Origin: Candidatus Electronema halotolerans
GTDB taxonomy: Bacteria; Desulfobacterota; Desulfobulbia; Desulfobulbales; Desulfobulbaceae
NCBI GenBank assembly: GCA_942493095.1
Contig: OW818675.1
Span: 750,001-782,000 of the forward strand
Length of the DNA: 32,000 nucleotides
Direction: 5' to 3'
Part shown: positions 7,901-29,317 of the stretch, piece after piece
How positions within the stretch are numbered: the stretch's first letter is position 1
Layout: each line of letters opens with the position of its first letter
Program-made: the position numbers and the translations under genes
The notes under the pieces: model-generated
What the model was told of the DNA's origin: nothing
Seen by the model: only the letters and a program-made list of their open reading frames with translations
Databases searched by the model: none

Positions 7901-7902
7901 TA

Positions 7903-14522: not shown

Positions 14523-15539
14523 TTATTTCCGCCGCAGTGGGCAGGCGTGATTTTTTGGCTGCGCCTTGCCTGCCTTGAAGAATATCCGCCAGGGCGCAGG
14601 ATATCCCTCTATTGTACGGGCGGGATTCTTTTTGTCAATAAAATCATGATAGGATTCAAAAACCATCCAGTCTGTCCGCCGCTGCTCATCGCTGCTCATT
14701 GGGTGCTGGCAGAAGCATTCCACATCGGTGAAACCGGCCCGGAGCAGCCAGTTATGGAGGCAGGCGGCAGTGGGGACAAACCAGGTGCCCGGCACCTTGG
14801 CATACGTTTTCTCCGGGAACAGGGCTACTGACTCCTCGCCGCTGATGGCCTGCGATTCGAGCAGGAGGCAGCCGCCCGGCTTGAGGGCCATGTGCAGCTC
14901 GCGCAGGGCCTCCACAGGCGAGGGCCGGTGATAGATCACGCCCAGACAGAAAATGACATCAAAGGAGTCAGGAAAAAGGTTGAGATGCTCAATACCGAGC
15001 AGGTCAATGAAGAGATTGTCCAGCTCGGCAAAGCGGTTGAGGGCGGTGAAGGCGAAGTAATGCTGGGCATACGGTTCAAAGCCGAGCACCATTTTCGGCG
15101 AATGAGCAGCCATGCGGAACATGTAATAGCCGTTGTTGCAGCCCACATCGGCAATCACCTTGTCTTTCAGGTCAGGCATGGCAGGCAGGAGGCGGTTCCA
15201 CTTGCGCCAGCTCTGCCATTCCGCGTCAATTTCCGTGCCAAAGATGGAGAACGGCCCCTTGCGCCACGGCATCAAGGTTTTCAGAAGCTGGAAGACCTGT
15301 TCCTGCTCGCTGTCGCTGAGATCAGCCCGGCTGCCAATGCGCACCACGTCACCGCTCAAGTCAAGGCTGGAGGCCCGTAAGTGTCTGACCGCCTCCAGCG
15401 GCTCCCGGTAGCGGAGAAAACCTTTTTTCGGCTGATTGATCCAGACCTGCTTTTCCTCGTGCAGGCGGGTGATGGTGTTCTTCAGGGCAAGAGGGAGATG
15501 ATCGAGATAAGGGGGCATCTTGTTTGAGTGTTGGTGCAT
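14523..15539 (-). CDS. cmoB: tRNA U34 carboxymethyltransferase CmoB
   Basis: LMPWRKGPFSIFGTEIDAEWQSWRKW is the CmoB signature, followed by the SAM-MTase motif VIADVGCNNGYY. Start is 15539 or the ATG at 15518 (MPPYLDHL). Confidence 0.9.
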   Translation of the reverse strand: MHQHSNKMPPYLDHLPLALKNTITRLHEEKQVWINQPKKGFLRYREPLEAVRHLRASSLDLSGDVVRIGSRADLSDSEQEQVFQLLKTLMPWRKGPFSIFGTEIDAEWQSWRKWNRLLPAMPDLKDKVIADVGCNNGYYMFRMAAHSPKMVLGFEPYAQHYFAFTALNRFAELDNLFIDLLGIEHLNLFPDSFDVIFCLGVIYHRPSPVEALRELHMALKPGGCLLLESQAISGEESVALFPEKTYAKVPGTWFVPTAACLHNWLLRAGFTDVECFCQHPMSSDEQRRTDWMVFESYHDFIDKKNPARTIEGYPAPWRIFFKAGKAQPKNHACPLRRK

Positions 15540-15540
15540 A

Positions 15541-15568
15541 AGAAAAGCCCCGCCGCAAGCGGCAGGGC
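15541..15568 (-). terminator. Rho-independent terminator after the radical SAM gene
   Basis: Minus strand reads GCCCTGCCG-CTTG-CGGCGGGGC followed by TTTTCTT. The GC-rich 9-bp stem has one G-U pair. Confidence 0.7.
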
Positions 15569-15596
15569 GTGAACAAACTTCTCAGTTTCGCATGAA

Positions 15597-17096
15597 TTAT
15601 GCTGCTGAAAGCGGGGCAAGAGTGAACAGCGAGTGATCAAATGAGACTTTTTCTGACTTGCTGCCGTTTTTTTTCAACATGTCAAGCAGGCGCAGGCCTT
15701 CCAGCCGCAGCACTGCTGGAAAAAGGGCCTTGTAGATCGGACAGGCCGAGGAGGTGACAGCCAGCGGACAGCCTCCGGCGCACCAGTATTTCCAAGCGCA
15801 GTTCTTGCAGGAAGCCTTTTCCGCAACTGAGAAATGCTGAGGCCAAGCCGCCCGCAGCAGAGTCAGCGGGTTGTCATCTTGAGCCGTTGCCAGCGGCCTG
15901 TTCATCCGCATCTGGCAGGAATGCGCCTGCCCGGCACAGTCAAAGACCACATAGCTGCTGCCCGCGCCGCAGGCGTGCTTATGGGCGGCAGACAGATCGG
16001 CCCGATCCAGCAGTGAGGCCAGCAGGCTGTGGTCGGGCAGGTCAGCTTCAATCACCTTGAAGGCGGCCTGCATGCCGCTGATGATCCGCCCCTCCTCCAG
16101 CTTGGTGGCATGAGTCGGGGCGCAGGCATTGTCCCGGCAGAAGTTGAAGCTGAAAGGCAGTTTCCGTGCCAAAAGCCACTGGGTCAGCTCTGACAGTCCG
16201 TCAACACTGTCTTTGCTGACTGTCACTGAAATATCCGGGGTCAGGCCGCAGGACAGGGCCAATTCAATTGCCTCCATTGCGGCAGCAGCAGAGTCTTTTC
16301 CGGCAGCATCGCAGCGCGGCGTGTCCCGCAGTCCGTCCAAGGAAATCATCAGGCGCAGGCCGAGCTGTTGCATTAACTCAATGATTTCCTCGGTCAGCAG
16401 GGTGCCGTTGCTGAGGATCACCCCGTCCAGCTCCAGGCCGTGCCGCCCGGCTTGGTCTTGGGCATATTGGTGCAGTTCCGCAGCAAGGGGAAAACAAAGC
16501 AGCGGCTCGCCGCCCGCATACTTGAGCTTGACCCGGCAATACTGATGCGCTGCTGCTGAACGGAAAGTTGCAGCAATGGCGGCCTTGCCCGTTGCAGGCG
16601 GCATGTCAAGCGGCTGATGGGGCCGGTAGCAGTAGGCGCAGCGCAGGTTGCATCGGTCGGTGAGATGCAGCCAGACTGAGAGGGTGTCAGGGATTTCAGC
16701 AGGCGGTTCCTGCGGGCAGGCGGCAGGGGTGAGCAGGTTGAAGGCGGTCATCTGGGCCAAGGTGTCCTGCACCGCCGCTGCGCCCCAAGTGTCTTTCCAC
16801 GCGGCAGGAATATCTGCCAACCGATGCGGGTTTTGAAAATATGCGGCCATCTCCGCTGCCGGGTGGTTGAGCAGGCCGATGGCGGAATGCCGGTTGAGGC
16901 TGATCTGATAGTCAGCGTTTAAGGGCAGGAAGACTGTGCTGCTATCCACTTGGCAGAGTGTGTCCGCAGCAGGTGGAAGTACGGCGGCAGGGAGCGGCAG
17001 GGCAAGGCTGCACGCGCAGTCACATTGGGCCTGCACGGCAGCGGCGGCAGTGCGGGTGAAAAAGACTTGCGGTGCCTGCTCGTGGTTCATGCTCAT
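15597..17096 (-). CDS. Radical SAM enzyme with C-terminal SPASM domain (peptide/protein-modifying maturase type) and a ~140-aa N-terminal extension
   Basis: CxxxCxxC in LHLTDRCNLRCAYCY. The C-terminus is Cys-rich and SPASM-like (CGAGSSYVVFDCAGQAHSC...CKNCAWKYWCAGGCP). ATG at 17096 (MSMNHEQ) is preceded by GGGGGGAAG and overlaps the upstream stop as ATGA. Confidence 0.85.
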   Translation of the reverse strand: MSMNHEQAPQVFFTRTAAAAVQAQCDCACSLALPLPAAVLPPAADTLCQVDSSTVFLPLNADYQISLNRHSAIGLLNHPAAEMAAYFQNPHRLADIPAAWKDTWGAAAVQDTLAQMTAFNLLTPAACPQEPPAEIPDTLSVWLHLTDRCNLRCAYCYRPHQPLDMPPATGKAAIAATFRSAAAHQYCRVKLKYAGGEPLLCFPLAAELHQYAQDQAGRHGLELDGVILSNGTLLTEEIIELMQQLGLRLMISLDGLRDTPRCDAAGKDSAAAAMEAIELALSCGLTPDISVTVSKDSVDGLSELTQWLLARKLPFSFNFCRDNACAPTHATKLEEGRIISGMQAAFKVIEADLPDHSLLASLLDRADLSAAHKHACGAGSSYVVFDCAGQAHSCQMRMNRPLATAQDDNPLTLLRAAWPQHFSVAEKASCKNCAWKYWCAGGCPLAVTSSACPIYKALFPAVLRLEGLRLLDMLKKNGSKSEKVSFDHSLFTLAPLSAA

Positions 17097-19798
17097 TCTT
17101 CCCCCCAAGAGGTAATATCGTCACTCAGCCAGCGGGCAAAAAAGTTCAATGCTTCAGGATGGTTGTCGTCAAGCTCCCGAACTGTCCAGAAACGTTTTAA
17201 ATTTTCCGACAGATCATATATCGTTTTTCTGTTAGTTATCCTTGGCAGCACCTTTTTCTGGATGTCACGTAATTGCCCGGTAATCGTGTATGGCTCATAT
17301 CTTCCTTTTTCTGGAAGAACTATAAACGCTTTACGATACCATTCTACAGCTTTTTCCGGCTTATTGGCAAGCAGTGACAAGTCTCCCAGACAGCGTTGCA
17401 GCAAGGAAATTTGGAGATGTTGGTATTTTTTGTCATCATCTGCAAGTATAATGTTCAAATCATTGACGAACTTGTCATATTCAGCAATATTATTTTCTAC
17501 AACAGCTATTCTGGCCAGTTCTGCCAAACTGAATAACTCGTATTGAATGTTATGTGCCTGTTGACTTAGATCGTAGCTTTCTTTTAACGCATCCTTGGCA
17601 AGATCAATTTGTTTTTTCTTCAAATAAACTTTTCCAAGAATATGAAAATATTCTGGTTCATCTCGTTCAATATCAAGTTCCTTCGCGTTACCTAAGCATT
17701 CTTCAGATTTTTCTAAATATTCTTTTCCCTTTAGCCAAAATACAGTTGCCTGCCCTAAATAAACCATACTGAGATAATCAATATCATTTTCATCTGAAAA
17801 AATTTTCAAAGCCTTATCAAAATGATTCAGTGCTTGATCAAGTTCATCAAACTCAATATGGATAACTCCACGTGTGCTGTTTGCAATCCCGATTCCGCGT
17901 TTGGAATCAATTTCTTTCCAGAATTCTTCTGCTTGACGACAAAGCCGCCTTGCACTGTCCCGATCACGTTTCAACGCATAGAGATAGCTCATATTGTTGA
18001 GGAGTTTGGCAGTTTGATATTTATCTACATGATCAGTGCCAAGTTCCAATCTCAAACGATTAGCTCTTCTATAGCAAATTCCAGCCTCATCGAACTTGCC
18101 CATGAGACGGTAATTGTATCCCTTGCCGATTAAAATCGAAAATTGAGAATTATCCAGTTTATTTTCTACAGAAATTTCTAATGCTGTTTTAAAATTCTCG
18201 TTTCCTTTATTGCAGCAGCCTAACCGTATTTCAATATTAGCCAGTTGCACCAGCATTTCTATTTTCTGCCCAGGAGTAATTGGATGATTTAAAGTTTTAC
18301 AAATTAACTCCTTGGCTTCCTTATATTCTTTATTGTCAAAATGATGAATAATAAAACGACTATTTATCATATAATTTTCTTCAAGCCCAATTTCTTTGCA
18401 AAAAAATATTATTTTTCTTGTAATTTCATCTCGATATCCCCATAGATAAATTTTACCAAGCATGTCAAATAATTCAGCAAAGTCCTTTGTTCCTTTTTTT
18501 ATATCAATCCGCAACAGGTAGTTGATCTGAAATCTTTTTAAGATCAGAAGGTTGTGTGTCAACGAACTCTTTTGCAAAGACAAATTGGCTATCTCTTGTT
18601 CTGTTGCTGCTGCAAGTTTATTAAGTTTAGCTATCTCTAATTCAATATTTTTGCATTGATGTTCCCGGAACTCTGCTGCTGTCATGCAATATTCATTACG
18701 ATATTCCCGATCAGGATCTGCTTCTGGCCAGACATATTCATTGACCATCCGTTGCATCTCGTCATGCAATTTCACTTGTCCGTCCGGCAGAGACTTGACA
18801 AAGACATATTCCTTTGATCTTTCAAGCAAACTTTTAGCATCATCTTGGTTGATTTTGAACAAGGCCGCTGTCATCGGCACGTCTATCGGATAGATAACAG
18901 CCATCGCCAATATCAGCCGTTCAACTTTATCCCGCATCTGGGCAAGACGGCAGACAAGCCGCTTTTCAAACTCTTTGCGCCGCTGTTGAGAAATATTTTT
19001 CAGCGATGCAATCGGCTCATCAGTCAGCCAAGACAAAGAAATGCCCCGTGAACACCATTCCACAGCCAGATCAATAATGATAGGCCTCCCGTCCGCTATG
19101 CAGAGAATTTTCTCGGTTAAGTCTGGTGAAAATGAAATGTGCAATAATTTTTGTTTTTGTTTTAGATAATAATTACTTGCTTTTTCCTCTAATGGCTGAA
19201 GGTCAATGCACTCGACAGGAAGTTTTTTTTGTAGAATTTCTTCTCCGATTTTGCGGGCATCACGACCGGCAATAAGGAGCAAATAATTCTTAACCTCTTC
19301 TAAACCAATATTTGCAAATTCCTTCCACCATTGTTCGTTTTCTGACAAAGCATCAGTCGTATCTAAAAACCAAATCACACGCTTTTTTGACGAAGCAATA
19401 TTAAAACCTTCAGTAAAACTGCGCTTTACTTCCTGTTCTTTTTTAATAATTCCTGATTGGCTAATTCCTACTTCACGCATTCTTCTTAGATCATTCAGGC
19501 AGGTCAGATAGCTGCCAAAACAAGTATCATCAAACTGCCTCACTGTGTACTCGATAACAGAATCTACAACATGGAAATCAGGATTGTCAAAATCGGCAAT
19601 TTCAAGCACCTGTATCGATTTACCGCTTTCTGCAAGATGCCGCTGCCGTACTTCCTGAAGAAGGCGTGTTTTGCCGATTCCACCAGGGGCATTGATGCAC
19701 ATAATATGTGGCTGATTCCATTCGTCGATCAATCTCCTAATTTGAGACAGTTCATTCTCCCTATTTATAAATGGAACTTGTTTAGGCATCTTTTTCAT
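17093..19798 (-). CDS. STAND-type P-loop NTPase with a long C-terminal TPR array and no effector domain
   Basis: 901 aa. FINRENELSQI, Walker A APGGIGKT (37-44), Walker B VIWFLDTTD (141-149), a GxP-like motif ADGRPIIIDLA, winged-helix KLHDEMQRMV, then ~400 aa of TPR-like helical repeats. No signal peptide or TM helix. Confidence 0.8.
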   Translation of the reverse strand: MKKMPKQVPFINRENELSQIRRLIDEWNQPHIMCINAPGGIGKTRLLQEVRQRHLAESGKSIQVLEIADFDNPDFHVVDSVIEYTVRQFDDTCFGSYLTCLNDLRRMREVGISQSGIIKKEQEVKRSFTEGFNIASSKKRVIWFLDTTDALSENEQWWKEFANIGLEEVKNYLLLIAGRDARKIGEEILQKKLPVECIDLQPLEEKASNYYLKQKQKLLHISFSPDLTEKILCIADGRPIIIDLAVEWCSRGISLSWLTDEPIASLKNISQQRRKEFEKRLVCRLAQMRDKVERLILAMAVIYPIDVPMTAALFKINQDDAKSLLERSKEYVFVKSLPDGQVKLHDEMQRMVNEYVWPEADPDREYRNEYCMTAAEFREHQCKNIELEIAKLNKLAAATEQEIANLSLQKSSLTHNLLILKRFQINYLLRIDIKKGTKDFAELFDMLGKIYLWGYRDEITRKIIFFCKEIGLEENYMINSRFIIHHFDNKEYKEAKELICKTLNHPITPGQKIEMLVQLANIEIRLGCCNKGNENFKTALEISVENKLDNSQFSILIGKGYNYRLMGKFDEAGICYRRANRLRLELGTDHVDKYQTAKLLNNMSYLYALKRDRDSARRLCRQAEEFWKEIDSKRGIGIANSTRGVIHIEFDELDQALNHFDKALKIFSDENDIDYLSMVYLGQATVFWLKGKEYLEKSEECLGNAKELDIERDEPEYFHILGKVYLKKKQIDLAKDALKESYDLSQQAHNIQYELFSLAELARIAVVENNIAEYDKFVNDLNIILADDDKKYQHLQISLLQRCLGDLSLLANKPEKAVEWYRKAFIVLPEKGRYEPYTITGQLRDIQKKVLPRITNRKTIYDLSENLKRFWTVRELDDNHPEALNFFARWLSDDITSWGEE

Positions 19799-22002
19799 CC
19801 TCTTGGTTCTTTATAGAATTTTTCAATTTGTTTGCACAGTTGTTCATAAGGTTCCTCATTGAACTGCTCTCCGCGCAGGCAAAAATTGACCATGAAACGA
19901 AATTCCCATTCTCTTTTTTCATCTTCCAATCTGCTCTTTAAATTGATGATATTGTCTACCCCATCAGGATATTTAATAAGCAGCTCTAAATAATTACGTA
20001 AAATTCCATCATCGGCAAAAAAATGGCAGTACAATTTCTCTCGATTGGCAGGATTATCAGAGCATCCTAATTGCAATTCTTGATACATCCCTTCAATGGC
20101 GATAATCTCCGGTCGTGAGATAGAATTCTGTAAATCTGCTTGATATATGTCTCTGGCGCACCAGCATAGATCAAGAAAACATTCGTTTTCTTCCAAACGC
20201 AGACGAATAGCCAACAAGCGGCGTACGATTTCATCTTGAATAAAACCATTTTTTCTTTTAACTAGATAGGTTGATGTTAAGGCATCTTCTAACTCGTTCA
20301 CATCATCTTGCCATTCAATCAAATTAAATTTAATAATTTCTTTTAAAATACGATGATTATATCGACGAAAAACACTTAATACATCAAATATATTTTTAAG
20401 TTTATCAGGGATTGATTTTCTAATTTCACGTGCACTTTCTAAAATTTGCTCTTCATGACATTTTTGAAATACTGCAATCGGATCTGACTTAAATATATCT
20501 TGGTTAATAATCTGCGCCATCAGCCTTGGATGGCCTCCAGTAATGTGCATAATTTGTGCAGCAAAAAGATCAAGTGCTGTCTCATTTTTTTCCGAAAAAT
20601 ACGGTTGAACCGTAGCTCGCACATGTCGAAATTGAAATGGGCTTAATGGACGAACAAGAAGAGGAATTTCTCTTGCCTTGCCATCCCATATTCCACCTAT
20701 ATATCGTCCGGCCATCCGCACCCGAAAATTAGGAAGCACACGTTGCATAGTTGGTAAAGACTTATTTAAAAATGAATCTATTTCTTCGATAGGAAATTTT
20801 TCTATGTTATCAATAATAAAAATAATTCTGTGATTTAATTTAAAACGGTCGCTGAAATCTTCAGAAACAACATTCTCAATAAACTTAACTAACTCTTTTT
20901 GATCATCAATACATTCTGCAAGCGAATAAATTAAATCCATAACTGATAATTTTTTTATATGAATACAACACCATCCAGCTTTAGCATGCTCATGCTCGAT
21001 TGCTCTCAAAAGTTCTGTTTTTCCATATCCAGCAGGTGCATCAAAAAGGATATACTGAGCTGCATTATTTCCACATGCTTCAGAACGTTCATCCTTTCTA
21101 TTTACAAAATTAAATAGATACTTATCAGGCAGAATAATTTTCTTGTATATACTAATATAATAATTATCCTTAATCCAGTTAACCAAATTATAAATTTCAT
21201 CTCCACTCCGTGCCCATTTTAAAAAATTCATGCTCATATCTTCCAGTGATGTACATTTCGGTAATTCAAAGAATGGCAACGAGTTATAAAAATCTGTAAA
21301 TGGTTCATTAAATAATATTCCTTCTATATGTTCAAGCTGTCTGATTATATATTCCTTATGCAAAAAAAATTGAACATATAAATACAGTTCTCCTATCTTT
21401 TCAATTGGCACAGCGAAAGGAATTGTCTCTTCTCTTGTTTCGTTAACATATCTCTCTGAAATAATACCAACAACTCTTCCTGATGCTTCATGATACACAG
21501 GAGAGCCGCTCATCCCTCCTCGAAGTGTCTGCTTTCCAATGGCCTCCGACTCAAGTTGCAGCAGCTCAACACCGCTGCTGACGAGAGTGACATATTCCCC
21601 AATCGTGCCCGCAGCAGGCAATCCCTCAAATATACGCGATTCTCTGAATCCAAACGTTTTGAATTCACAAGATTGCTGCTTGTCATAACGCCATTCTCCC
21701 AGAGGTAATACAAGTGCCTCCGATGGCTTACCATCCTTGAGACGAAGCACAGCCATATCCACTTTGTCTGCCATCTTCACTTCGTCTGGAGATGATGAAG
21801 ACGGCCATATACATTCGGCAGGATATTCCTGCTTATTGAAAACCACAGTTAATGATTTTATCGGCCTACCTCTTTCTTGATCTTTAACTAAATGAAAACA
21901 AGTCAGCAGTGTTCCGTCATTGTCAATAAAAAAGGCGGTGCCAGCTTCAAAACCAGTGCCGACACCCTTGACACATGCTACAGCGTTCCGCAGTTCAACC
22001 AT
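19795..22002 (-). CDS. Trypsin-like serine protease fused to a STAND-type P-loop NTPase
   Basis: 735 aa. Catalytic triad His37 (LTCFHLV), Asp82 (VDMAVLRL) and Ser165 (GGMSGSPVY). Walker A APAGYGKT (322-329), Walker B IIFIIDN (Asp398), NB-ARC-like ITGGHPRLM (488-494), and a helical C-terminus without obvious repeats. ATGA overlap with the next gene at 19795-19798. Confidence 0.8.
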   Translation of the reverse strand: MVELRNAVACVKGVGTGFEAGTAFFIDNDGTLLTCFHLVKDQERGRPIKSLTVVFNKQEYPAECIWPSSSSPDEVKMADKVDMAVLRLKDGKPSEALVLPLGEWRYDKQQSCEFKTFGFRESRIFEGLPAAGTIGEYVTLVSSGVELLQLESEAIGKQTLRGGMSGSPVYHEASGRVVGIISERYVNETREETIPFAVPIEKIGELYLYVQFFLHKEYIIRQLEHIEGILFNEPFTDFYNSLPFFELPKCTSLEDMSMNFLKWARSGDEIYNLVNWIKDNYYISIYKKIILPDKYLFNFVNRKDERSEACGNNAAQYILFDAPAGYGKTELLRAIEHEHAKAGWCCIHIKKLSVMDLIYSLAECIDDQKELVKFIENVVSEDFSDRFKLNHRIIFIIDNIEKFPIEEIDSFLNKSLPTMQRVLPNFRVRMAGRYIGGIWDGKAREIPLLVRPLSPFQFRHVRATVQPYFSEKNETALDLFAAQIMHITGGHPRLMAQIINQDIFKSDPIAVFQKCHEEQILESAREIRKSIPDKLKNIFDVLSVFRRYNHRILKEIIKFNLIEWQDDVNELEDALTSTYLVKRKNGFIQDEIVRRLLAIRLRLEENECFLDLCWCARDIYQADLQNSISRPEIIAIEGMYQELQLGCSDNPANREKLYCHFFADDGILRNYLELLIKYPDGVDNIINLKSRLEDEKREWEFRFMVNFCLRGEQFNEEPYEQLCKQIEKFYKEPRG

Positions 22003-22004
22003 TC

Positions 22005-22343
22005 TCAGCTATCCTTCCGCTTCCATGTGAGATTGACTTTCAATGCCGCTTCAACACCAGACTGAACCAACACCACGCCCGCATCAGATTTAACCGCCAA
22101 ACTGAATTCCAATGAGGCTTCATCTGGACTGGCCTTCTTGATCGCATCCTTGAAGCCGTTGGCCAATGTGCCAATCGTAACGGACATCTGATCAAAAACT
22201 TTTTCTGTAACATCGGCTGCTTTCTGGGCTTGTTCCCTTATTCCCATTTTCTGAAACCCGCCGCCCTGAGCAGGTTCAAAAGGCTCCACAGCAATTTTGA
22301 TTTCACCATCTCCAACAGGAACAGTAAGATAACGAATACTCAC
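22005..22343 (-). CDS. Small soluble protein resembling the trypsin-co-occurring domain 2 (Trypco2) family
   Basis: 112 aa. GTG start at 22343 with AAAGGAG 7 nt upstream; stop lies 2 nt before the protease ATG. The layout is an N-terminal strand region with Gly (IKIAVEPFEPAQGGG), a central helix, then PDEASLEFSLAVKSDAGVVLVQSGVEAALKVNLTWKRK. This matches my memory of Trypco2-type sequences; it was not verified by HMM. Confidence 0.5.
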   Translation of the reverse strand: MSIRYLTVPVGDGEIKIAVEPFEPAQGGGFQKMGIREQAQKAADVTEKVFDQMSVTIGTLANGFKDAIKKASPDEASLEFSLAVKSDAGVVLVQSGVEAALKVNLTWKRKDS

Positions 22344-22533
22344 AAGTCACTCCTTTTGCTGAAAATTCAATTAGTTCGGCATCTATCACATCTCTTTTCC
22401 CGCAGCAGTTTTCTCGAACATACCTGAATCAGGACAGCAGCTCAAGCAAAATCAGATGGTTGTCAAAGGAAAAATCATGCAGGTTGCTGTTTCAGTCAAA
22501 CTGCCCCAGCAGCTCTGAACTGATAAGCAGGCA

Positions 22534-23199
22534 TCACTCCATATCCTCCAGCAGGCCGAGTTTGGCTGCATAACGGACCAGATCAGCGGTGCTGTGCAGG
22601 TCTAATTTGCTGAGAATATTGGCCCGGTGGTTGGTCACAGTTTTCGCGCTGATGCAGAGCTGTTCAGCAATTTCCTTCACTGACTCGCCGTGGGCCAGCA
22701 GCCGGAGCACTTCCTGCTCCCGCCCGGTCAGATTGCCGTAGGTGGCATCAGCAATGTCCATCACTTCGGCTGTTTCCAAGAGCCGGGGCGCGATTTCCTG
22801 CGACAGGGCCGCATCAAGATAATGCTCATCACGCAGGGCCGCTTCCAGCGCGTCGCGCAGACAGGCCGAGACCGACTCCTTGATCAGATAGCCCAGAGCG
22901 CCAGCTCGGAGCGCGCCGAGAATGTAGTCAATCTTTGAGTGCATGCTGACAATGACAATCCTCGTTTCCGGGGCTGCGCTCCGCAAGGTGCGGGTGAGCT
23001 GAATGCCGCTTCGGTCTGGCAGAGACAGGTCAATCACGGCCACGTCCGGCTTGATTCTGCGCACCGCCGCCTCGCCCTGGCGCGAGTCCGCCGCCTCATC
23101 AGCAATGACAAAGCCCGGACAGCGGCTGATGATCTGCCGGAGGCTGGCCCGGAAGGTGTCATGATCGTCAATAATCACTATCTGCTTCTGCGTGCTCAT
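22534..23199 (-). CDS. NarL/FixJ-family response regulator (REC + LuxR-type HTH)
   Basis: IVIIDDHDTFR, phospho-acceptor VAVIDLSLPD, and HTH LTGREQEVLRLLAHGESVKEIAEQLCISAKTVTNHRANILSKL. Confidence 0.9.
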   Translation of the reverse strand: MSTQKQIVIIDDHDTFRASLRQIISRCPGFVIADEAADSRQGEAAVRRIKPDVAVIDLSLPDRSGIQLTRTLRSAAPETRIVIVSMHSKIDYILGALRAGALGYLIKESVSACLRDALEAALRDEHYLDAALSQEIAPRLLETAEVMDIADATYGNLTGREQEVLRLLAHGESVKEIAEQLCISAKTVTNHRANILSKLDLHSTADLVRYAAKLGLLEDME

Positions 23200-24745
23200 T
23201 ATCCGCCTCCCTCTGCGGTTCCGCCTGATCCTCCTGCGGGCTGATCAGGCTGGGAAATTCAATAAATATCTTCACGCCTTCGCCCGGAGCTGACTGAAGG
23301 CGGAAAGTGCCGTTCATCACCCGGACCCGCTCCTGCATGCCAAGCAGGCCAAAACGCTTTTTCTCTCTGACCTTGCGGCAAATTTCTTCCACAGCAAAGC
23401 CGCTGCCATTGTCCTCAATGCGGAGAATGACATTGGCCCCGGACGCAATCAGCCGGACATCGGCCTGACTTGCCTGCGCATGTTTGCCAATGTTGTTCAG
23501 GGCCTCCTGCACCAAGCGGTAGATGTTGATAGCGTGCTCGGCAGCAAGCGGCAGCTTGTCCGCGCCAGCCTTGGAGAATCTGACCGGAATGCCGCTTTTG
23601 CGGGCAAAGGCCCGGCAGCAGTCGGCCAGCGCGCTCGCCAAGCCGATCTGCTCCAGACCGGGTGGCCGCAGGTTGTAGGACAGCTCGCGCACGGTCTTGA
23701 TGCAGCGGTCAATCTGCCTGCCCCAGTCGTGCCGGGCTTGAGTCAGGGCCAGCTCATCCTCAACCGGCTCGCTGAAAAAGGAGTCGCCCGCAATTTTGAG
23801 CGAGGACAGTTCCTGGGCCACCTGATCATGCAGATAAAGGGCGATCTGCTGCCGCTCATTTTCCTGCACGGCCAGTAGCTGCTGAGTGAGATGATGGACC
23901 TGCTCCTCAGCCCGGCGCAGCTCGGCATTGGCCTGCACCAGCTCCTCTGTCCGCTCCTGCACCTTGGCATCCAAGTCCTCGTGATAGCAGGTGAGCTGCT
24001 CGGCCATTTTCTCAAACTCTTGAGCAAGAAACTCGAATTCATCGCCGGAATGAATGCCCAAGCGGTGCTGAAGATTGCCTGCCCCGATCTGCCGGGTGCC
24101 CTCCTCAAGGATGCGCACCGGCCCCAGCACTGAGCGCAGCATCAGAACAAAGACCGCCACGGTCAGCAGCACTGCGACCGCACTGGTCAGGGCGACCACG
24201 ATCAGGGTGTGCTGATACTTCTCCGTGACAAAGGCTTCAGTCTTGGTCAGTTCCTGCAAATGGAGATGAAGATGCTCGTCAATCACGGCCTCCATCTTTT
24301 TCAGCTCCTCGCGCACCACCACGGCAATTTGGGCAAACTCCTCCTCTGGCCAGCCTTGGGCGGATTCCTCAAGAATATATTGCGACAAGGTCATGGCAAG
24401 AATGCTGTGATGAAGCATCTCATGCGCGGCCAAGGATGCCGGGTCAGTGTTCTGATGGCTGTGCCGGGCATTGTGCTTGGTGATCAGCTCCTTGAGCTGG
24501 GCCGCCTTGGCCGTGATGCTCCTCCGGTCAATGTGCTTTTCCCGCAGTCCTGCCTCAAGGGAGAGCAGCAGCTTTTTCAGCTCCAGCATGGCCGAGACAT
24601 TGAAGGCCACGTCCTGCTGCATTTTGTGGAACTGGCTGTGAATGCTGGAAAAAGTGCAGATGCAGAACAGGCTGAGTGCGAAGATGACCGCAATCAGCGG
24701 GGAGAAATAGAGAATGAAGCGGTTGCGGAGGCTGAGTTGCAGCAT
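23168..24745 (-). CDS. Membrane sensor histidine kinase (2 TM, HAMP, HisKA_3, HATPase_c; NarX/LiaS-like)
   Basis: HAMP (VRILEEGTRQIGAGNLQHRLGIHSGDEFEFLAQEF), H-box ALYLHDQVAQELSSL, N-box EALNNIGKHA, and G-boxes DNGSGF and GLLGMQERV. Overlaps the regulator gene by 32 nt. Confidence 0.9.
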   Translation of the reverse strand: MLQLSLRNRFILYFSPLIAVIFALSLFCICTFSSIHSQFHKMQQDVAFNVSAMLELKKLLLSLEAGLREKHIDRRSITAKAAQLKELITKHNARHSHQNTDPASLAAHEMLHHSILAMTLSQYILEESAQGWPEEEFAQIAVVVREELKKMEAVIDEHLHLHLQELTKTEAFVTEKYQHTLIVVALTSAVAVLLTVAVFVLMLRSVLGPVRILEEGTRQIGAGNLQHRLGIHSGDEFEFLAQEFEKMAEQLTCYHEDLDAKVQERTEELVQANAELRRAEEQVHHLTQQLLAVQENERQQIALYLHDQVAQELSSLKIAGDSFFSEPVEDELALTQARHDWGRQIDRCIKTVRELSYNLRPPGLEQIGLASALADCCRAFARKSGIPVRFSKAGADKLPLAAEHAINIYRLVQEALNNIGKHAQASQADVRLIASGANVILRIEDNGSGFAVEEICRKVREKKRFGLLGMQERVRVMNGTFRLQSAPGEGVKIFIEFPSLISPQEDQAEPQREADNEHAEADSDY

Positions 24746-25173: not shown

Positions 25174-26081
25174 GACAATTTTGGGTAATGGTGAATCGTG
25201 AGTGATGGGTTGAAAATATGTTGAAATTGCTGGAAAATATAATATACTGGCGGCAAGGGATGCTCTCTGTCCCATCGGCTCTTCGTCGGATGCGCATGTC
25301 AAGCCGTCATTATGAAAAAAACAAACATGGAGAAGAAAGCTGTGCAATGCCCAAGATGTGGTTCATCAGTCATTGTGAAAAATGGCTCCAATGCGAATGG
25401 GAAAAAGAAATTTTTATGTAAGGACTGCTCACGTCAATTCGTTGAGAATCCTCAGAACAAAACAATATCTGATGCTGAATGGCGCATAGTTGATAAGCTT
25501 CTTGTTGAAAGAATCTCCTTGGCTGGGATTGCGAGAGCCGTTTCCATCTCAAAAAGATGGCTTCAGGAATATGTTAAAAAAAAACGAAATGAAGTCAAAA
25601 AAGAGGCTTTCAATATGTCCCGCAACGGAAAAATCTTCATCGAAGCCGATGAAATGTGGACTTTCGTTGGTGACAAGGAAAATGATATTTGGATATGGCT
25701 TGCTGTCGAGAGAAGAACAAAGCTTATTGTCGGATATCATGTTGGAAAAAGAGATAATGCAGGAGCAGCCGCCTTGTGGGACTCCCTTTCTGAAGATTGC
25801 AAAAAGAACGGAATATTTTTTACGGATGGACTCGCCGCTTATTCGAGCGTGTTTCCAGCTGAAAGGCATAGAATTGTCAGCAAAGGAAGCGGAAAAACAA
25901 GTCATATCGAAAGGCTCAATTTGACATTCAGACAAAGATTGTCTGCACTTGTCAGAAAGACCATTTCATTTTCGAGAAGCATCGAAAATTTAACTGCATC
26001 TGTCTGGAGGTTCATTCAAGATTATAATAATAATCTTTTGTTTAATTGATCACTCACAGTTCACCATCACCCAATTTTGTC
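25174..26081 (+). mobile_element. IS1-family insertion sequence (~908 bp, single fused transposase ORF)
   Basis: Imperfect ~33-bp terminal inverted repeats: GACAATTTTGGGTAATGGTGAATCGTGAGTGAT on the left and GACAAAATTGGGTGATGGTGAACTGTGAGTGAT on the right (reverse complement). I see no flanking direct repeat. Confidence 0.8.
25312..26049 (+). CDS. IS1-family transposase (InsAB-like, single frame)
   Basis: N-terminal zinc finger CPRCGS...CKDC, an HTH region, and DDE motifs IFIEADEMWTFVG, FFTDGLAAY and HIERLNLTFRQ. Start is 25312 or 25327 (MEKKAVQ). Confidence 0.9.
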   Translation: MKKTNMEKKAVQCPRCGSSVIVKNGSNANGKKKFLCKDCSRQFVENPQNKTISDAEWRIVDKLLVERISLAGIARAVSISKRWLQEYVKKKRNEVKKEAFNMSRNGKIFIEADEMWTFVGDKENDIWIWLAVERRTKLIVGYHVGKRDNAGAAALWDSLSEDCKKNGIFFTDGLAAYSSVFPAERHRIVSKGSGKTSHIERLNLTFRQRLSALVRKTISFSRSIENLTASVWRFIQDYNNNLLFN

Positions 26082-27154
26082 AATTCATACCTGTGGCGCA
26101 GAGAATCTTCAGTAAGGGGAACAGTATAATATAATGTGCTATAAAGATTAAAACCTATTTTGGTTAGGCAATTATTTTTTTTTGAAAAATCATTTATCGC
26201 CTTTTTTGTTTCATCATCTATGAAATTTGTCAATCTAACTTTTTTATACCCATGCAAGAAAAGCAATTCCTGCACTTTATTTATTTTTGTTTTCTCATCA
26301 ATCTGGTAATTCCATTGTTTTTTTACATAGTACTCTACTGTAGGATCAGGCTGTGCACCATCTAATAGCCTCCAATATGGCAGATCAAGATATTTTCCAA
26401 TAAGTTGGATAACACTTGTCTGAACAAGCAAGCGTAAGGCAGCATGTCTTCCTTCAACCTTTTTAACTTCCCCTTTCAGGCCAAGGGTTGGCCCAAGTAT
26501 TGTAAAACCAAGTTCTTTTTTGCCGATTCCCTTATGCACCTGCATAGTATTAGATGTCTGAATACGAGGAAGTCCGCTCATTGTATCAATATTCAGCATG
26601 TTTAAATCAATAGTTATCCTTGCAGTGCTTGTTTTTTCACCCTGCATATACTCAATGCCAAAAGGAGCTTGTTGTCCAAAATCATCAGTTTCATAACCTA
26701 AATTTGTAGAATCTTCTTTGGTTTCCATACCTCTGTCGAATTCAGTAATACCTCCTATTATAATAGCAGCAGGAACAAGTTTATTTTGTAAATTATTATA
26801 CCCTAAATTTTTCAGGTTAAGAACAATATCAGGACGATAAGGAATAAAAAGAATATTTCCTCCAATCGCATTCAACGCGCTTACGGTCATTTCTGTGATA
26901 TCATAGGGTATTTCTGCTTTTGTATGTTCTGCTGTTCCTGTGTTGTCACTGATTTTGTCAATCATAATTCTTGATCTCACTCCATAGATCTCAGCCATTT
27001 TGCCAAGATCCTTGAGAACATGACTTAATTCTGTTTTATTAACTTCTATGACTCCAGAAGGAATTTCTATATCAACTTGGCGCGGATCTATCTTAGCGCA
27101 TCCTAAAAAAAGCAGTGCCAAAAAAAAATATACCAATATTTTGATAATAGACAT
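26054..27154 (-). CDS. CsgG-family outer-membrane secretion lipoprotein with a C-terminal peptidoglycan-binding-like domain; extreme 3' end replaced by IS1
   Basis: ATG at 27154 (MSIIKILVYFFLALLFLGCA, with lipobox Cys). Three segments line up with E. coli CsgG as I remember it:
- IDKISDNTGT...MTVSALNAIGGNILFIPYR (cf. IQDETGQ...LVTALKDSRWFIPLER);
- AAIIIGGITEFD;
- RITIDLNMLNIDTMSGLP.
The tail VQELLFLHGYKKVRLTNFIDDETKKAINDFSKKNN looks like PG_binding_1. The last 9 codons and the stop lie inside the IS1 inverted repeat. Confidence 0.7.
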   Translation of the reverse strand: MSIIKILVYFFLALLFLGCAKIDPRQVDIEIPSGVIEVNKTELSHVLKDLGKMAEIYGVRSRIMIDKISDNTGTAEHTKAEIPYDITEMTVSALNAIGGNILFIPYRPDIVLNLKNLGYNNLQNKLVPAAIIIGGITEFDRGMETKEDSTNLGYETDDFGQQAPFGIEYMQGEKTSTARITIDLNMLNIDTMSGLPRIQTSNTMQVHKGIGKKELGFTILGPTLGLKGEVKKVEGRHAALRLLVQTSVIQLIGKYLDLPYWRLLDGAQPDPTVEYYVKKQWNYQIDEKTKINKVQELLFLHGYKKVRLTNFIDDETKKAINDFSKKNNCLTKIGFNLYSTLYYTVPLTEDSLRHRYELTKLGDGEL

Positions 27155-27175
27155 TATGCGCAACAAATACTTTTT

Positions 27176-27210
27176 AAATAAAAAATCCGCCTTTTGAAAA
27201 GGCGGATTTC
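27176..27210 (-). terminator. Strong rho-independent terminator between the small secreted protein gene and the CsgG-like gene
   Basis: Perfect palindrome AAATCCGCCTTTT-G-AAAAGGCGGATTT (27183-27209). On the minus strand it runs into TTTTTTATTT. Confidence 0.75.
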
Positions 27211-27230
27211 ACAAAAATTTCAAGAAAAAA

Positions 27231-27575
27231 CTATTTCATGGATATGGCCGCCTTGTCCCCCTGAGACTGATCAATAATTATGATATCACCATGAATATTA
27301 CTCCCTGAACCAACTATTACTGAGTTGACAGAAATATTTTTTGCTGTTCCATTCGCATCGTCAATAACAACATCGTCGCTGCTCATAGATGTATATGATT
27401 TACTGATAGAATTAAGAACAATGTAACTTATATTCTTCTGCATTTTGCCTAACTCGTGATAATCAGTTATAGAATCATCTATATCAATGCCATCGTCTAT
27501 ATCCAAGGCAAGACATGAATTGATGATTGATACTGATATGGTTATTATAAGCAGTAAAATTTTCATAGTTTTCAT
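27231..27575 (-). CDS. Small secreted protein (114 aa), Asp/Ile/Ser-rich, unknown family
   Basis: ATG at 27575 (MKTMKILLLIITISVSIINSCLA) or 27566, with a signal peptide. The C-terminal half (NISVNSVIVGSGSNIHGDIIIIDQSQGD) looks beta-strand rich. The ORF-track 5' extension to 27713 overlaps the upstream gene and is rejected. Confidence 0.5.
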   Translation of the reverse strand: MKTMKILLLIITISVSIINSCLALDIDDGIDIDDSITDYHELGKMQKNISYIVLNSISKSYTSMSSDDVVIDDANGTAKNISVNSVIVGSGSNIHGDIIIIDQSQGDKAAISMK

Positions 27576-27617
27576 AATAATTGACACCTGTGTTTTTTCT
27601 TCCTTACTTAAAGGAGT

Positions 27618-27645
27618 CAGGGAGTCAACATAAATTGACTCCCTG
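27618..27645 (-). other. 11-bp perfect stem hairpin just downstream of the repeat-protein gene
   Basis: CAGGGAGTCAA-CATAAA-TTGACTCCCTG. On the minus strand the T-run lies 5' of the stem rather than 3', so this is not a canonical terminator. It could be an RNA stability or processing element. Confidence 0.35.
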
Positions 27646-27663
27646 AAAAAACGCTGATCGTTG

Positions 27664-28506
27664 TTACTGGATGGCAACACCACCTGCAACAGCGGTTGCT
27701 CCTCCAGTTGCAACAGCAGTCACATCATCAGCATCAACTTTGTTGTTCACATTACCGACGGTAACCCCCCATTTAAGAGATATTCCGCCTGCGACGGCTG
27801 TTGAATATTCACCTTTAGCTACAGCAGTGATGTCATCAGCCTTAACATTGTTGTTTAGATTGCCAACACCATCAACAAAATCAGTGACGGTAATCCCTCC
27901 CGCAGCTGCTGTGGCATCACCTTTAGCCACAGCAGTGATGTCATCAGCCTCAACATTATTGTTTATATTGCCGATATTGTAGGCATCACGAAGACTAATT
28001 CCGCCTGCAGCGGCAGCCGCCCCTAAACCTTCAGCTACAGCAGTAATATCATCAGCATCAACCTTGTTGTTCACGTTGCCAATGTTATGAGATCCTGAAC
28101 CCTTTATATCGATACCACCTGCCGCAGCACTTGCGCCCCACGGTCCCTTTGCGACAGCAGTCACATCATCGGCATTAACATTATTGTTCACATTGCCAAT
28201 GGGACCTGATTCTCTGATGTTGATGCCTGCCGCAATCGCACTTGAGCCATCCTCAGATCCAGCTCCCTTTGCGACAGCAGTCACATCACCAGCCTCAACC
28301 TTGTTATTAACATTACCATAGTCATAAGAATTCTCAATGCTGATGCCGGCCGCTGTCGCTGTCACTGTCCCTTCTCCTGGTCCTCCATGCTGTTTAGCAA
28401 CAGCAGTAATGTCGTCGGCATCAACCTTGTTATTCACATTGCTCGCAAAAGCACTTCCTGCGCACATAATAACAGATACTGCTACGATAATTGCTGTCTT
28501 GTTCAT
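27664..28506 (-). CDS. Secreted repeat protein (280 aa): signal peptide plus seven imperfect 30-42 aa repeats built around GNVNNKVDADDITAVAKG...AAGGI
   Basis: ATG at 28506 (MNKTAIIVAVSVIMCAGSAFA) with AAGGAG upstream. The repeats are read directly from the translation. The protein is rich in Asn, Ala, Gly, Val and Asp. Apart from one Cys in the signal peptide it has no Cys, and there are almost no aromatic residues in the repeat cores. Confidence 0.75.
   Translation of the reverse strand: MNKTAIIVAVSVIMCAGSAFASNVNNKVDADDITAVAKQHGGPGEGTVTATAAGISIENSYDYGNVNNKVEAGDVTAVAKGAGSEDGSSAIAAGINIRESGPIGNVNNNVNADDVTAVAKGPWGASAAAGGIDIKGSGSHNIGNVNNKVDADDITAVAEGLGAAAAAGGISLRDAYNIGNINNNVEADDITAVAKGDATAAAGGITVTDFVDGVGNLNNNVKADDITAVAKGEYSTAVAGGISLKWGVTVGNVNNKVDADDVTAVATGGATAVAGGVAIQ
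27711..28446 (-). repeat. Seven degenerate ~100-127 nt tandem coding repeats within the repeat-protein gene
   Basis: The plus-strand core ACAGCAGT(C/G/A)A(C/T)(A/G)TCATC(A/G)GC(A/C)T(C/T)AAC(A/C/T)TT(G/A)TT(G/A)TT recurs near 27713, 27821, 27921, 28033, 28151, 28271 and 28398. Confidence 0.8.
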
Positions 28507-28533
28507 GTCGATCTCCTTTGTTGGGGATTGAGT

Positions 28534-28572
28534 AAAAAAACTTCCTGCTGAGTTTCTTTCTACAGCAGAAAG
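28534..28572 (-). terminator. Rho-independent terminator/attenuator between the DUF2807-like gene and the repeat-protein gene
   Basis: Minus strand reads CTTTCTGCTG-(12 nt loop)-CAGCAGGAAG followed by TTTTTTT. The stem is 10 bp with one G-U. Only ~27 nt separate it from the repeat-protein ATG. Confidence 0.6.
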
Positions 28573-28591
28573 ATTTGAAAAGCCAATTGAG

Positions 28592-29317
28592 TCACTCTGC
28601 GGCATCCACTCTGCCAGCACCTGTTGTTTCAGATATTACAACAGGATGTCCTGCATAAACAACATGTCCTGCGCCGAATGCTTTGGCTGTCAATTTTTTT
28701 CCGGCATTAACAGTGGCTCTGCCACTGCCACTTACAGACACAAAAGCCTCTTCAGAGAAGAGTTTTTCACATTGCAATTTCCCGGCTTCAGATATGACCG
28801 CCGTTATTTTCTCGATGTTTCCTTGCGCTGCTACAGAAGCAGCACCACTGACATCAATGTTGAAATTTTCAACATTGCGTATGTCTTCAATCATAACTTC
28901 CGCCGCGCCATCAACTGAAATGGATGAAATACTTTTCACCTGCACATCCAGCTTCACGGGGCGCAATGTTGAAATATTTTTTTTCACCCCTATTTTCAAC
29001 ACGTCCCCCTCCACCTTTGTTTTTATCAAAGGAACAACAGAGCTGTCCGCTGAGATAAAAACAATATTTTCCTGTCCAAACTTGATATGAATTTTTCCAG
29101 CAAAATTTCTTATATCAATCTGGCAAAAATCTGGGAGCACTCTTCTCTCTTGTTTAAGAACTCCTGTGTCAAGAGTTGCTCCTGGAGACAAGGCATGTCC
29201 ATTGATCACAATACCGCCTGCCACAGCTTGACTGCCTTGCTTGACAACTGAAGCAGCTATTGTGCGAAAAGTCATAACAGACAAAAGGAATATTGCAGCG
29301 GCAAAAATTAACTTCAT
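28592..29317 (-). CDS. Secreted DUF2807 / GIN-domain (adhesin-head-like beta-helix) protein
   Basis: Signal peptide MKLIFAAAIFLLSVMTFRTIAA. The periodic pattern is typical of DUF2807: IHIKFGQENIVFISAD...GDVLKIGVKK...ISVDGAAEV...IDVSGAASV...VSVSGSGRATV...AFGAGHVVYAGHPVVISETTGAGRV. Confidence 0.6.
   Translation of the reverse strand: MKLIFAAAIFLLSVMTFRTIAASVVKQGSQAVAGGIVINGHALSPGATLDTGVLKQERRVLPDFCQIDIRNFAGKIHIKFGQENIVFISADSSVVPLIKTKVEGDVLKIGVKKNISTLRPVKLDVQVKSISSISVDGAAEVMIEDIRNVENFNIDVSGAASVAAQGNIEKITAVISEAGKLQCEKLFSEEAFVSVSGSGRATVNAGKKLTAKAFGAGHVVYAGHPVVISETTGAGRVDAAE

Follow-up and report, generated by a model that had tools for sequence, protein, structure and literature searches.

We describe a four-gene operon in a 32,000-nucleotide stretch of the genome of the filamentous cable bacterium Candidatus Electronema halotolerans (contig OW818675.1 of assembly GCA_942493095.1, positions 750,001 to 782,000). 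The whole stretch is called the window, and all coordinates are those of the window. [quoted passage not shown] It is a rare, fused variant of a conserved system of filamentous bacteria that probably serves immunity or cell death and is apparently undescribed. The conserved unit consists of the gene 2-type NTPase, the STAND-TPR protein and the rSAM; the trypsin domain with Trypco1 is one swappable effector module among several. We lean towards a four-gene conflict system that resembles the nucleotide-binding leucine-rich-repeat receptors (NLRs), serves abortive infection or programmed cell death, belongs to the class predicted by Kaur et al. 2020 (PMC7159879; here and below, the searchable text of that paper) and works by the mechanism proposed below. 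That it is a conflict system with a protease/Trypco1 arm we hold to be probable.

The four reading frames follow one another closely. Gene 1 (22005-22343; 112 residues) starts with GTG, 7 nt downstream of a Shine-Dalgarno-like AAAGGAG read from the sequence (22350-22356, minus strand), and a 2-nt gap (TGA-GA-ATG) separates it from gene 2 (19795-22002; 735 residues). Gene 2 and gene 3 (17093-19798; 901 residues) overlap by ATGA (19795-19798). The ATG of the rSAM gene (15597-17096; 499 residues) overlaps the stop codon of gene 3 in the same manner (ATGA, 17093-17096: GAAGAATGAGC). A terminator-like hairpin on the same strand (15547-15568; 9-bp stem with 8 GC pairs, then TTTTCTT) lies 29 nt past the rSAM stop and is the probable end of the operon. 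It is the strongest such element of the region, and nothing comparable occurs between gene 3 and the rSAM; the total count of terminator-like sites in the region is not above that for shuffled sequence, and only the strength and position of this hairpin are suggestive. Because of the ATGA overlap with gene 3, the synteny with genes 2 and 3 elsewhere and the hairpin after the rSAM, the latter is counted in the operon. The operon thus comprises four genes, the rSAM being its conserved fourth member. A preliminary description of the locus, made from the sequence alone, had given three minus-strand reading frames, the 2-nt gap and the first ATGA overlap exactly as found here, and the residues and motifs that it listed for genes 2 and 3 are all correct and conserved among homologs. 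It closed the system after gene 3, however, mistaking a break in GC content for its end.

When one genome per species was scanned for the rSAM, 371 loci were obtained, and 67 fetched loci had at least 5.5 kb upstream. A gene 3-like STAND-TPR gene was immediately upstream of the rSAM in 58 of the 67, and a gene 2-like NTPase gene came before that in 47 of these 58. Among the trypsin-fused loci, all seven that extend past gene 3 have the rSAM after it (the window, L001, L003, L004, L090, L091 and the ZnUZn_02 contig, L numbers being our labels for loci). The gene 3/rSAM overlap was 4-28 nt in six of the seven gene calls, and ATGA is the usual junction type in the family. On the contigs of the closest gene 2 homologs, the gene following the STAND-TPR gene encodes a Radical_SAM protein of about 500 residues. 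Protein matches numbered 2397 for the rSAM family against 29 for the protease-NTPase family. The trio of genes 1-3, which the preliminary description had offered as a unit whose conservation might be sought in gene neighbourhoods, is therefore not the core; the core is the gene 2-type NTPase with gene 3 and the rSAM, and Trypco1 and trypsin can be swapped.

The swapping is evident from the N-termini of the gene 2-type proteins, in which the NTPase is always C-terminal. In 43 sequences the N-terminal domain was Trypsin_2 (12 cases), effector-associated domain (EAD) 7 (10), EAD9 (8), TIR_2 (3), EAD8 (2), PNP_UDP_1 (2), SEFIR (1) or a ParA/CbiA-like domain (1). This NTPase clade is small, with 543 representatives at 50% identity among 1.84 billion proteins. 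In Nostoc the operon runs Trypco1, Trypsin-EAD9, EAD9-NTPase, STAND-TPR, rSAM. As judged from its domains, it is an adaptor-coupled form of the direct protease-NTPase fusion of the window. The presence in Nostoc of EAD9 on the trypsin protein as well as on the NTPase, together with the EAD7, EAD8, TIR and PNP variants, agrees with the definition of the class in Kaur et al. 2020, in which effectors are fused to the NTPase or recruited through matching EADs (the 'EAD principle'). The assignment to an NTPase-centred conflict system of this class, already made in the preliminary description, is hence supported.

Genes 1-3 are AT-rich, with GC of 0.37-0.47 and GC at third codon positions (GC3) of 0.28-0.44; the flanks have GC of 0.57-0.61 and GC3 of 0.69-0.83. 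By gene, GC3 is 0.28 for gene 2, 0.35 for gene 3 and 0.69 for the rSAM, against 0.72-0.83 for neighbouring host genes, and the switch lies no more than about 100 nt from the gene 3/rSAM junction. In seven other loci GC3 is uniform across the operon genes, and a Nostoc version (L025, 4259-11485) is of even composition. The nearest relatives of window genes 2 and 3 are those of L001 and L091; the window rSAM falls with another clade (L009-L011 and L013). It was the host-like composition of the rSAM, in an operon of chimeric make-up, that caused the composition-based boundary to miss gene 4. The proposal that the AT-rich block is a horizontally acquired unit thus holds in part: genes 1-3 are much more AT-rich than their flanks, but the fourth gene is host-like. 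The sharp GC3 break, the host-like rSAM and the differing relatives could also be taken to mean that genes 1-3 are a self-contained, horizontally acquired system and the rSAM an unrelated host neighbour. We consider this very improbable, since every homologous locus that reaches far enough has an orthologous rSAM directly after gene 3, a STAND-TPR gene precedes the rSAM in most rSAM-seeded loci as given above, the ATGA overlap is the usual junction of the family, and the strong hairpin lies after the rSAM and not before it; moreover, chance would have had to place there exactly the conserved partner family. The simplest reading is a cassette exchange within the operon: either the rSAM is the old resident and the genes upstream of it, 1-3, were exchanged, or it was the other way round.

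Residues 1-205 of gene 2 (21388-22002) make up an HtrA/DegS-like protease. Pfam Trypsin_2 scored 44.1 bits (cut-off 27.6; E 4.6e-11), and the triad His37, Asp82 and Ser165 is conserved wherever the domain is present in homologs. When an AlphaFold2 model of gene 2 (pLDDT 83, pTM 0.70) was compared by Foldseek, the N-terminal ~200 residues matched HtrA1, DegS and MucD (target TM 0.67-0.74 for HtrA1 and DegS). The remainder, residues 206-735 (19795-21387, stop included), contains a helical linker, the STAND NTPase and a C-terminal all-helical domain, and matched CED-4, Apaf-1, MalT, Avs3, NRC3 and archaeal ATPase_2 proteins. The NTPase motifs are Walker A (322-329, APAGYGKT), the Walker B residue D398, R427/R433 and GGHP (489-492, in GGHPRLM). 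In the family alignments, the GKT of Walker A and D398 are invariant, and R427, R433 and GGHP are invariant or nearly so. No Pfam STAND or P-loop model scored above its cut-off on gene 2 (nSTAND3 13.0 against 27.2; NACHT 12.1 against 26.7), and the NTPase is therefore taken as a STAND clade without a model of its own. A PDB sequence search with gene 2 gave no match. The gene 2 protein is 100% identical to GCAAIG_03555. Gene 2 is thus both an S1/HtrA-like trypsin-fold protein and a STAND NTPase. It had been said to have no repeat sensor, and this essentially stands, with the addition of a confidently modelled all-helical domain of ~140 residues at the C-terminus (594-731).

Gene 3 is a STAND NTPase with a TPR array. 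Its residues 1-420 (18539-19798) form the NTPase module, with Walker A at 37-44 and VIWFLDTTD, both conserved among homologs, and D146. This nucleotide-binding domain is below threshold for ATPase_2 and AAA_16 of Pfam; the Nostoc ortholog passes both NACHT (35.9 against 26.7) and nSTAND1 (28.9 against 27.1). Residues ~421-901 (17093-18538, stop included) are the TPR array, a putative sensor, in which TPR_12 was found at 4.7e-17, with TPR_2, TPR_1 and TPR_8 also above their cut-offs. A PDB sequence search returned only TPR proteins, among them a bacterial kinesin-light-chain-like TPR (2.9e-07). When the gene 2 and gene 3 families were aligned by hhalign, a probability of 98.8% was obtained (E 9e-17; 324 columns over the nucleotide-binding, helical and winged-helix regions). 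By this sequence comparison the two NTPases are paralogs. Profile searches and structure matches hence agree with the earlier account of a complete trypsin-fold protease fused to one STAND and a second STAND with TPRs, in which the sensor-like module is carried by one ATPase and the effector-like module by the other. Identities range from 43 to 56% for the rSAM, 26 to 46% for the gene 2 NTPase and 24 to 36% for gene 3; gene 3 is the least conserved component, which fits a fast-evolving sensor. Whether the two STANDs divide their labour as sensor and helper is, in our judgement, close to an even question, with a little more doubt than belief.

The small protein had been assigned to Trypco2, an assignment that fails. 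Gene 1 matches Pfam Trypco1 (PF19493) with 57.9 bits (cut-off 24.6; E 1.7e-15) over profile positions 3-98 of 98, and NCBIfam CU044_2847_fam at 3.4e-13; Trypco2 (PF19631) gave no match in the Pfam scan even at E <= 10. The protein has no Cys. It consists of amphipathic beta-strand and helix segments, with amphipathic moments 2-3 standard deviations above shuffles. Its C-terminal end is K-V103-N-L-T-W-K-R-K-D-S, and V103, 9 residues from the C-terminus, is the V/I of a motif, [VI]x[LF]xW[KR], that is conserved among the gene 1 homologs of these operons. Trypco1 lies directly beside the protease gene also in L003, L004, L091, the ZnUZn_02 contig and Nostoc.

Evans et al. (bioRxiv 10.1101/2025.11.14.688446) have described a related arrangement under the name Pepco, which they use for both Trypco1 and Trypco2; the protein that they characterised, SsPepco, is a Trypco2 and is scored as such by Pfam (5e-18). 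In their work, Pepco forms SDS-resistant, pre-formed beta-barrels of 9-10 subunits and becomes toxic once it is cleaved after Ile97 by the adjacent trypsin-Avs4 and so loses a C-terminal tail of 20 residues (10.1101/2025.11.14.688446). The modules are alike in that a protein of ~110-120 residues is encoded immediately upstream of a trypsin-like protease fused to a STAND, and in that the module is swappable. Only 2 nt lie between the end of gene 1 and the protease-STAND gene, in keeping with the adjacency of a small Pepco/Trypco gene to a gene for a trypsin- or caspase-like protease that Evans et al. 2025 describe. They differ in that SsPepco is a Trypco2 with a cleavable 20-residue tail and acts with a single-chain Avs4 possessing its own sensor, whereas the window has a Trypco1 with almost no tail, a protease-STAND without a repeat sensor, and two further conserved genes (the STAND-TPR and the rSAM). 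An attempt to carry the Pepco cleavage site over to Trypco1 through an alignment with SsPepco was abandoned for want of detectable similarity. Gene 1 may be considered a candidate protease-activated toxin or pore, which is a reasonable analogy with Trypco2/Pepco in which homology is not demonstrated. The suggestion that the small protein is the likely substrate of the protease is, by the same analogy, in agreement with these later experiments, and the statement that the system has no terminal toxin appears weak, as the small protein may itself be the toxin. It may be noted that Pfam 'Pepco' is a separate family, PF24393, which the Trypco1 homolog of L004 (2048-2413) matches weakly (8.9e-05, below the cut-off).

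The fourth gene encodes an enzyme of the radical SAM/SPASM peptide maturase superfamily. It matches Pfam Radical_SAM at 5.1e-17 and has an N-terminal tail of ~45 residues, a domain at ~45-125 that resembles the recognition element (RRE) of enzymes acting on ribosomally synthesized and post-translationally modified peptides (RiPPs), a radical SAM core and a SPASM domain. The CxxxCxxC cysteines (C149/C153/C156) and seven SPASM cysteines are invariant in the family alignment, and a homolog passes the SPASM model TIGR04085 (48 against 27 bits). The best PDB profile match was the thioether-forming CteB (3e-34), in an alignment that takes in the CteB RRE, and the structures closest to the AlphaFold2 model (pLDDT 84.6, pTM 0.86) in Foldseek were TigE, CteB, ChlB, anSME, SkfB and SuiB. 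As for NCBIfam equivalogs, all 65 matches were below cut-off, the nearest models being PapB (the best, 106.2 against 340 bits), nif11-type, QhpD and DynA, all far below. By these cut-offs the rSAM is outside the named maturase families PapB, QhpD, nif11-type, DynA and anSME. The enzyme was also considered as a pVip/viperin, and viperin-like nucleotide chemistry was rejected: the PADLOC pVip profile aligns with the generic core only (residues 141-274 against 2-120 of 257 profile positions), the NCBIfam viperin score is 55.6 against 180, and the enzyme has an RRE and a SPASM domain instead.

The tail of the rSAM carries a conserved PxI[IL]-type motif, of which the P and two hydrophobics reach a majority near positions 11-14, followed by C25-D26-C27-x-C29 (the C-D-C-A-C motif of residues 25-29; 17010-17024). 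Of these residues, D26 never varies in the alignments, and conservation of the three Cys reaches 90% or more. In a survey of 82 loci, the number of Asp-Cys units varied from 1 to ~4 among rSAM homologs. The variants include QCDCAC, CDCDCDCAC, CDCDGGDCAC in Nostoc, two to four [ED]DCAC units in some Chloroflexi, and QCDAC in L076 and L078; loci showing the variation range over L009-L088 (e.g., L088, L083, L060, L062, L075 and L080). The L090 contig ends just past the rSAM start, and the Cys motif is already visible there. Repeats that vary in number in this way are characteristic of RiPP core motifs and would be unusual for a structural metal site. PapB, QhpD and CteB make Cys thioether links, which in PapB and QhpD are to Asp or Glu. 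CteB, PapB, QhpD and SkfB, the best sequence and structure matches, share with the window rSAM the RRE, the radical SAM barrel and the SPASM auxiliary-cluster cysteines, and their substrates offer Cys plus acidic or other residues; the window rSAM differs from these thioether maturases by its unique ~45-residue Asp-Cys extension, its STAND operon setting and the lack of a separate precursor gene. When 15300-22700 was searched for a precursor peptide gene (FxSxx-COOH end, Cys-rich, DCxC, intergenic), nothing convincing was found, and in the family alignments genes 2 and 3 have no invariant Cys that could serve as rSAM substrate. That the rSAM acts on its own N-terminal Asp-Cys tail is a tentative proposal, which we rate as rather doubtful.

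A second kind of locus bears on this point. L005 (9001-19530, GCA_964651475.1) retains the NTPase pair, as an EAD7-NTPase and a 1252-residue TPR protein, but its rSAM-SPASM is non-orthologous (422 residues, 22% identity) and has a C-terminal RRE-like segment. It is adjoined by ORFs of 65 and 76 residues, the former with DC and QCE motifs, and by a BtrH_N/C39-like peptidase, after which come EAD9/EAD7 small proteins and an nSTAND1 protein. The variable Asp-Cys tail, the thioether-type kin of the enzyme and the small Cys/acidic ORFs of L005 together suggest, at the level of sequence, that the NTPase pair may need an rSAM-modified Cys/acidic peptide, which in the main family may be the N-terminus of the rSAM itself.

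The same observations might be read to mean that the operon is a RiPP-type biosynthetic or signalling cluster, in which the rSAM matures a peptide, the protease removes its leader and the STAND ATPases act as regulators, as in LAL, MalT and AfsR. The RRE, the closeness of the enzyme to bona fide RiPP maturases (PapB, nif11-type, DynA, CteB, ChlB, SuiB), a weak resemblance of the gene 3 TPRs to HaaT, FxsT and AfsR, and the small ORFs and C39-like peptidase of L005 all point in that direction, and Kaur et al. (PMC7159879) allow peptides as 'toxin or signal'. We nevertheless find it unlikely. Pfam and NCBIfam gave no helix-turn-helix (HTH) or other DNA-binding domain in gene 2 or 3, and a MalT/LAL-type transcription regulator was rejected for want of an HTH domain. 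In the window there is neither a transporter nor a separate precursor gene, and the protease and Trypco1 are dispensable for the conserved core. At their N-termini the gene 2-type proteins carry modules that are classic for immunity or cell death (TIR, SEFIR, PNP, EAD7/8/9, TRADD-N-like), and one neighbour is a bDLD1 protein.

We compared the conflict system proposed here with the known ones that it resembles. No NCBIfam equivalog was found for any of the four components. When the four proteins and the Nostoc orthologs were run against PADLOC, no system was matched, as the preliminary description had anticipated for named defence systems; the only matches were generic ones to the protease, TPR and rSAM core, those for the protease domain being LmuA, RT-protease and PDC-M35A. 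The EAD-coupled systems of Kaur et al. (PMC7159879) and Kaur et al. 2021 (PMC8195603, likewise in its searchable text) are alike in having an NTPase core, EAD7/8/9, bDLD1 and TRADD-N-like adaptors, co-occurrence of trypsin and Trypco1, and enrichment in filamentous bacteria. Those described there are ternary types with MoxR-vWA-VMAP/iSTAND, FtsH, GTPase and the like, whereas the core in the window is two paralogous STANDs with a rSAM/SPASM enzyme. For such a core, no description was found in the searchable text of Kaur et al. (PMC7159879), nor in the searchable literature at large, a 2026 survey of bacterial STANDs included. The parts are hence of known kinds (Trypco-protease module, STAND NTPases, EAD-coupled systems), and the paired-STAND and rSAM/SPASM core appears undescribed.

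Section 24 of Kaur et al. (PMC7159879) deals with a zincin peptidase and a small peptide of FxSxx-, RxD- or acidic type, sometimes with an rSAM-SPASM; in every case these peptide modules are coupled with an AP-ATPase-TPR protein, and the peptide is proposed as a toxin or signal. The FxSxx-COOH systems (Haft & Basu 2011; Kaur et al. 2020) share with the window an rSAM-SPASM coupled to a STAND (AP-ATPase)-TPR and a TIR- or ParA-like AP-ATPase. Unlike them, the window has neither a zincin metallopeptidase nor a vWA-MoxR-VMAP context, and a separate precursor gene, be it of FxSxx, RxD or acidic type, is missing as well; its candidate 'core' motif is on the N-terminus of the rSAM itself. Membership was rejected, as FxsB scored 40.7 against 370 bits and FxsT 25.1 against 300 bits, no ORF ended in FxSxx, and the operon has no metallopeptidase. 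Antiviral STAND (Avs) and bacterial NACHT proteins are built on the same plan, with the effector at the N-terminus, a STAND NTPase next and a TPR-type sensor at the C-terminus; they share the effector repertoire (protease, TIR, PNP), and the gene 2 model is structurally similar to Avs3, as the Foldseek comparison showed. They differ from the window, where the effector belongs to one STAND protein and the TPR sensor to its paralog, and where the rSAM is an obligate neighbour. Single-chain Avs/AVAST membership was rejected on the former ground; the Avs and NACHT models of PADLOC gave no match at E <= 1. The paired sensor/helper NLRs of plants (e.g., the NRC network) offer an analogy only: two related ATPases are encoded together, one with recognition repeats and the other the executioner, but the origin is independent, the rSAM component is without a plant counterpart, and a physical or functional pairing would here be hypothetical.

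In the loci sampled, the system is almost confined to filamentous forms. Among the best 80 of the 371 rSAM genome loci, 76 were from Nostocales or Chloroflexota; other lineages that carry the system are Ca. Vecturithrix and the cable bacterium of the window. Some homologs are beside defence-type genes: L002 (1-7185) with PglZ-like and DUF87 genes, and L007 (3200-9001) with HEPN/nucleotidyltransferase (HEPN-MNT), SLFN_AlbA_2 (Schlafen-like), AAA-ATPase_like and bDLD1 protein genes. The defence-island setting for which the preliminary description had suggested a check is thus hinted at by these homologs, but not by the window locus itself; many Nostoc loci also are among housekeeping genes and not in obvious defence islands. 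In L028 (1387-14135, Chloroflexaceae) a second gene 3-like STAND-TPR gene is upstream, and extra AAA and TIR-NTPase genes are downstream of the rSAM, which suggests a local expansion of the receptor set.

This distribution, almost wholly filamentous or multicellular, raises the question whether the same genes serve developmental or kin-directed cell death, or control of filament integrity, and not defence against phage; damaged cells might, for example, be sacrificed on an endogenous modified-peptide signal. The housekeeping surroundings of the window and Nostoc loci, and the obligate peptide-modifying enzyme, which suggests an endogenous ligand, would accord with such a purpose. On the other hand, Kaur et al. 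(PMC7159879) attribute the same bias towards multicellular taxa to the risk of infection in multicellular forms, some loci do adjoin defence genes, and antiviral STANDs use the very TIR, PNP and protease effectors that are swapped here. We regard the developmental purpose as a minor possibility, though not a negligible one.

For the conflict system that we favour, the analysis establishes domain identities, motif conservation, the paralogy of the NTPases, four-gene synteny, effector swapping and taxonomic distribution, and we propose the following mechanism. The TPR-STAND of gene 3 would recognise a trigger through its TPRs and, once activated, would co-oligomerise with its paralog, gene 2. 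Oligomerisation of gene 2 would cluster and thereby activate its protease domains. The protease may then cleave Trypco1, converting it to a membrane-damaging oligomer that kills the cell, a step for which the analogy with Trypco2/Pepco is the sole basis. The probable task of the rSAM is to cross-link a peptide, most likely through a Cys-based thioether; the best candidate for that peptide is its own N-terminal Asp-Cys tail, and the product could be an endogenous ligand, licence or guardee that regulates the TPR-STAND. A more specific version would be a bacterial 'paired NLR' receptor licensed by an rSAM-made self-peptide, which the TPR-STAND reads while the helper STAND deploys swappable effectors. 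The N-terminus of the rSAM would in that case be a leader plus core (PxI[IL]... and then 1-4 Asp-Cys repeats), its product remaining tethered or being released. We think this version improbable.

Several points weigh against the proposed system. No experimental test of any of its members was found in the searchable literature. The Trypco1 family of the window has no detectable similarity to SsPepco (hhalign probability 0.06%), and gene 1 is without a long C-terminal tail, only 5 residues following the conserved Trp; the Pepco cleavage mechanism can for these reasons be applied to gene 1 by analogy only. In nine trypsin-fused loci, Trypco1 is intact in five, disrupted in two and absent in two, and therefore the protease may have other substrates. 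The rSAM homolog of L004 has lost the Cys motif, which could be a metal site and not a substrate, and the window rSAM is without 9 SPASM-region residues (~445-450; consensus TYRATGRYD) that are found in the other full-length members aligned. The window locus is outside a classical defence island, between a two-component system and cmoB, with insertion sequence (IS) elements (IS630, IS1) 7-10 kb away. Finally, the composition of the operon is chimeric, and its parts may not be co-adapted.

Taken together, the chimeric composition, the IS630 and IS1 elements nearby, the 9-residue deletion in the rSAM and the disruption of Trypco1 in some relatives could indicate a decaying, non-functional remnant, that is, an operon put together by recombination where IS elements abound, with components that have ceased to cooperate. 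This seems most unlikely, as all four ORFs are intact (112, 735, 901 and 499 residues) in AT-rich DNA with frequent stop codons, every invariant catalytic, Walker and Fe-S cysteine residue is kept, and the tight junctions and ribosome-binding site are also kept.

Around the operon, the following was observed. On its 5' side, 190 nt from gene 1 and on the same strand, there is a GC-rich gene for a LuxR-type response regulator (22534-23199), then one for a histidine kinase (23168-24745). The AT-rich segment 6882-10317 holds two IS630-family transposase copies, inverted, each with HTH_Tnp_IS630 and DDE_3 split over two ORFs; a 592-residue ORF there (7433-9211) has ~465 N-terminal residues with no family match. 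A third AT-rich island, 25312-29317, has an IS1-type transposase (25312-26049, plus strand) followed by four minus-strand ORFs (26054-27166, 27231-27713, 27664-28620 and 28592-29317), and for none of the first three was a convincing Pfam family found.

Here a compositional boundary cuts through an operon, and breaks in GC are hence unfit as system boundaries. Receptors of the STAND/NLR type have a central part in immunity throughout the domains of life; those characterised in bacteria consist of a single chain, which binds phage proteins directly. If the proposed mechanism holds, the system would be a bacterial counterpart of the sensor/helper NLR pairs, it would place RiPP-type radical chemistry inside an immune or cell-death switch, and it would provide a test case of whether Trypco1, like Trypco2, is a protease-gated pore. 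Were the self-peptide version also to hold, a maturase-fused, RiPP-like element would act as an immune regulator or guardee, and the peptide could report on SAM, Fe-S or redox status, or pass a signal between the cells of a filament.

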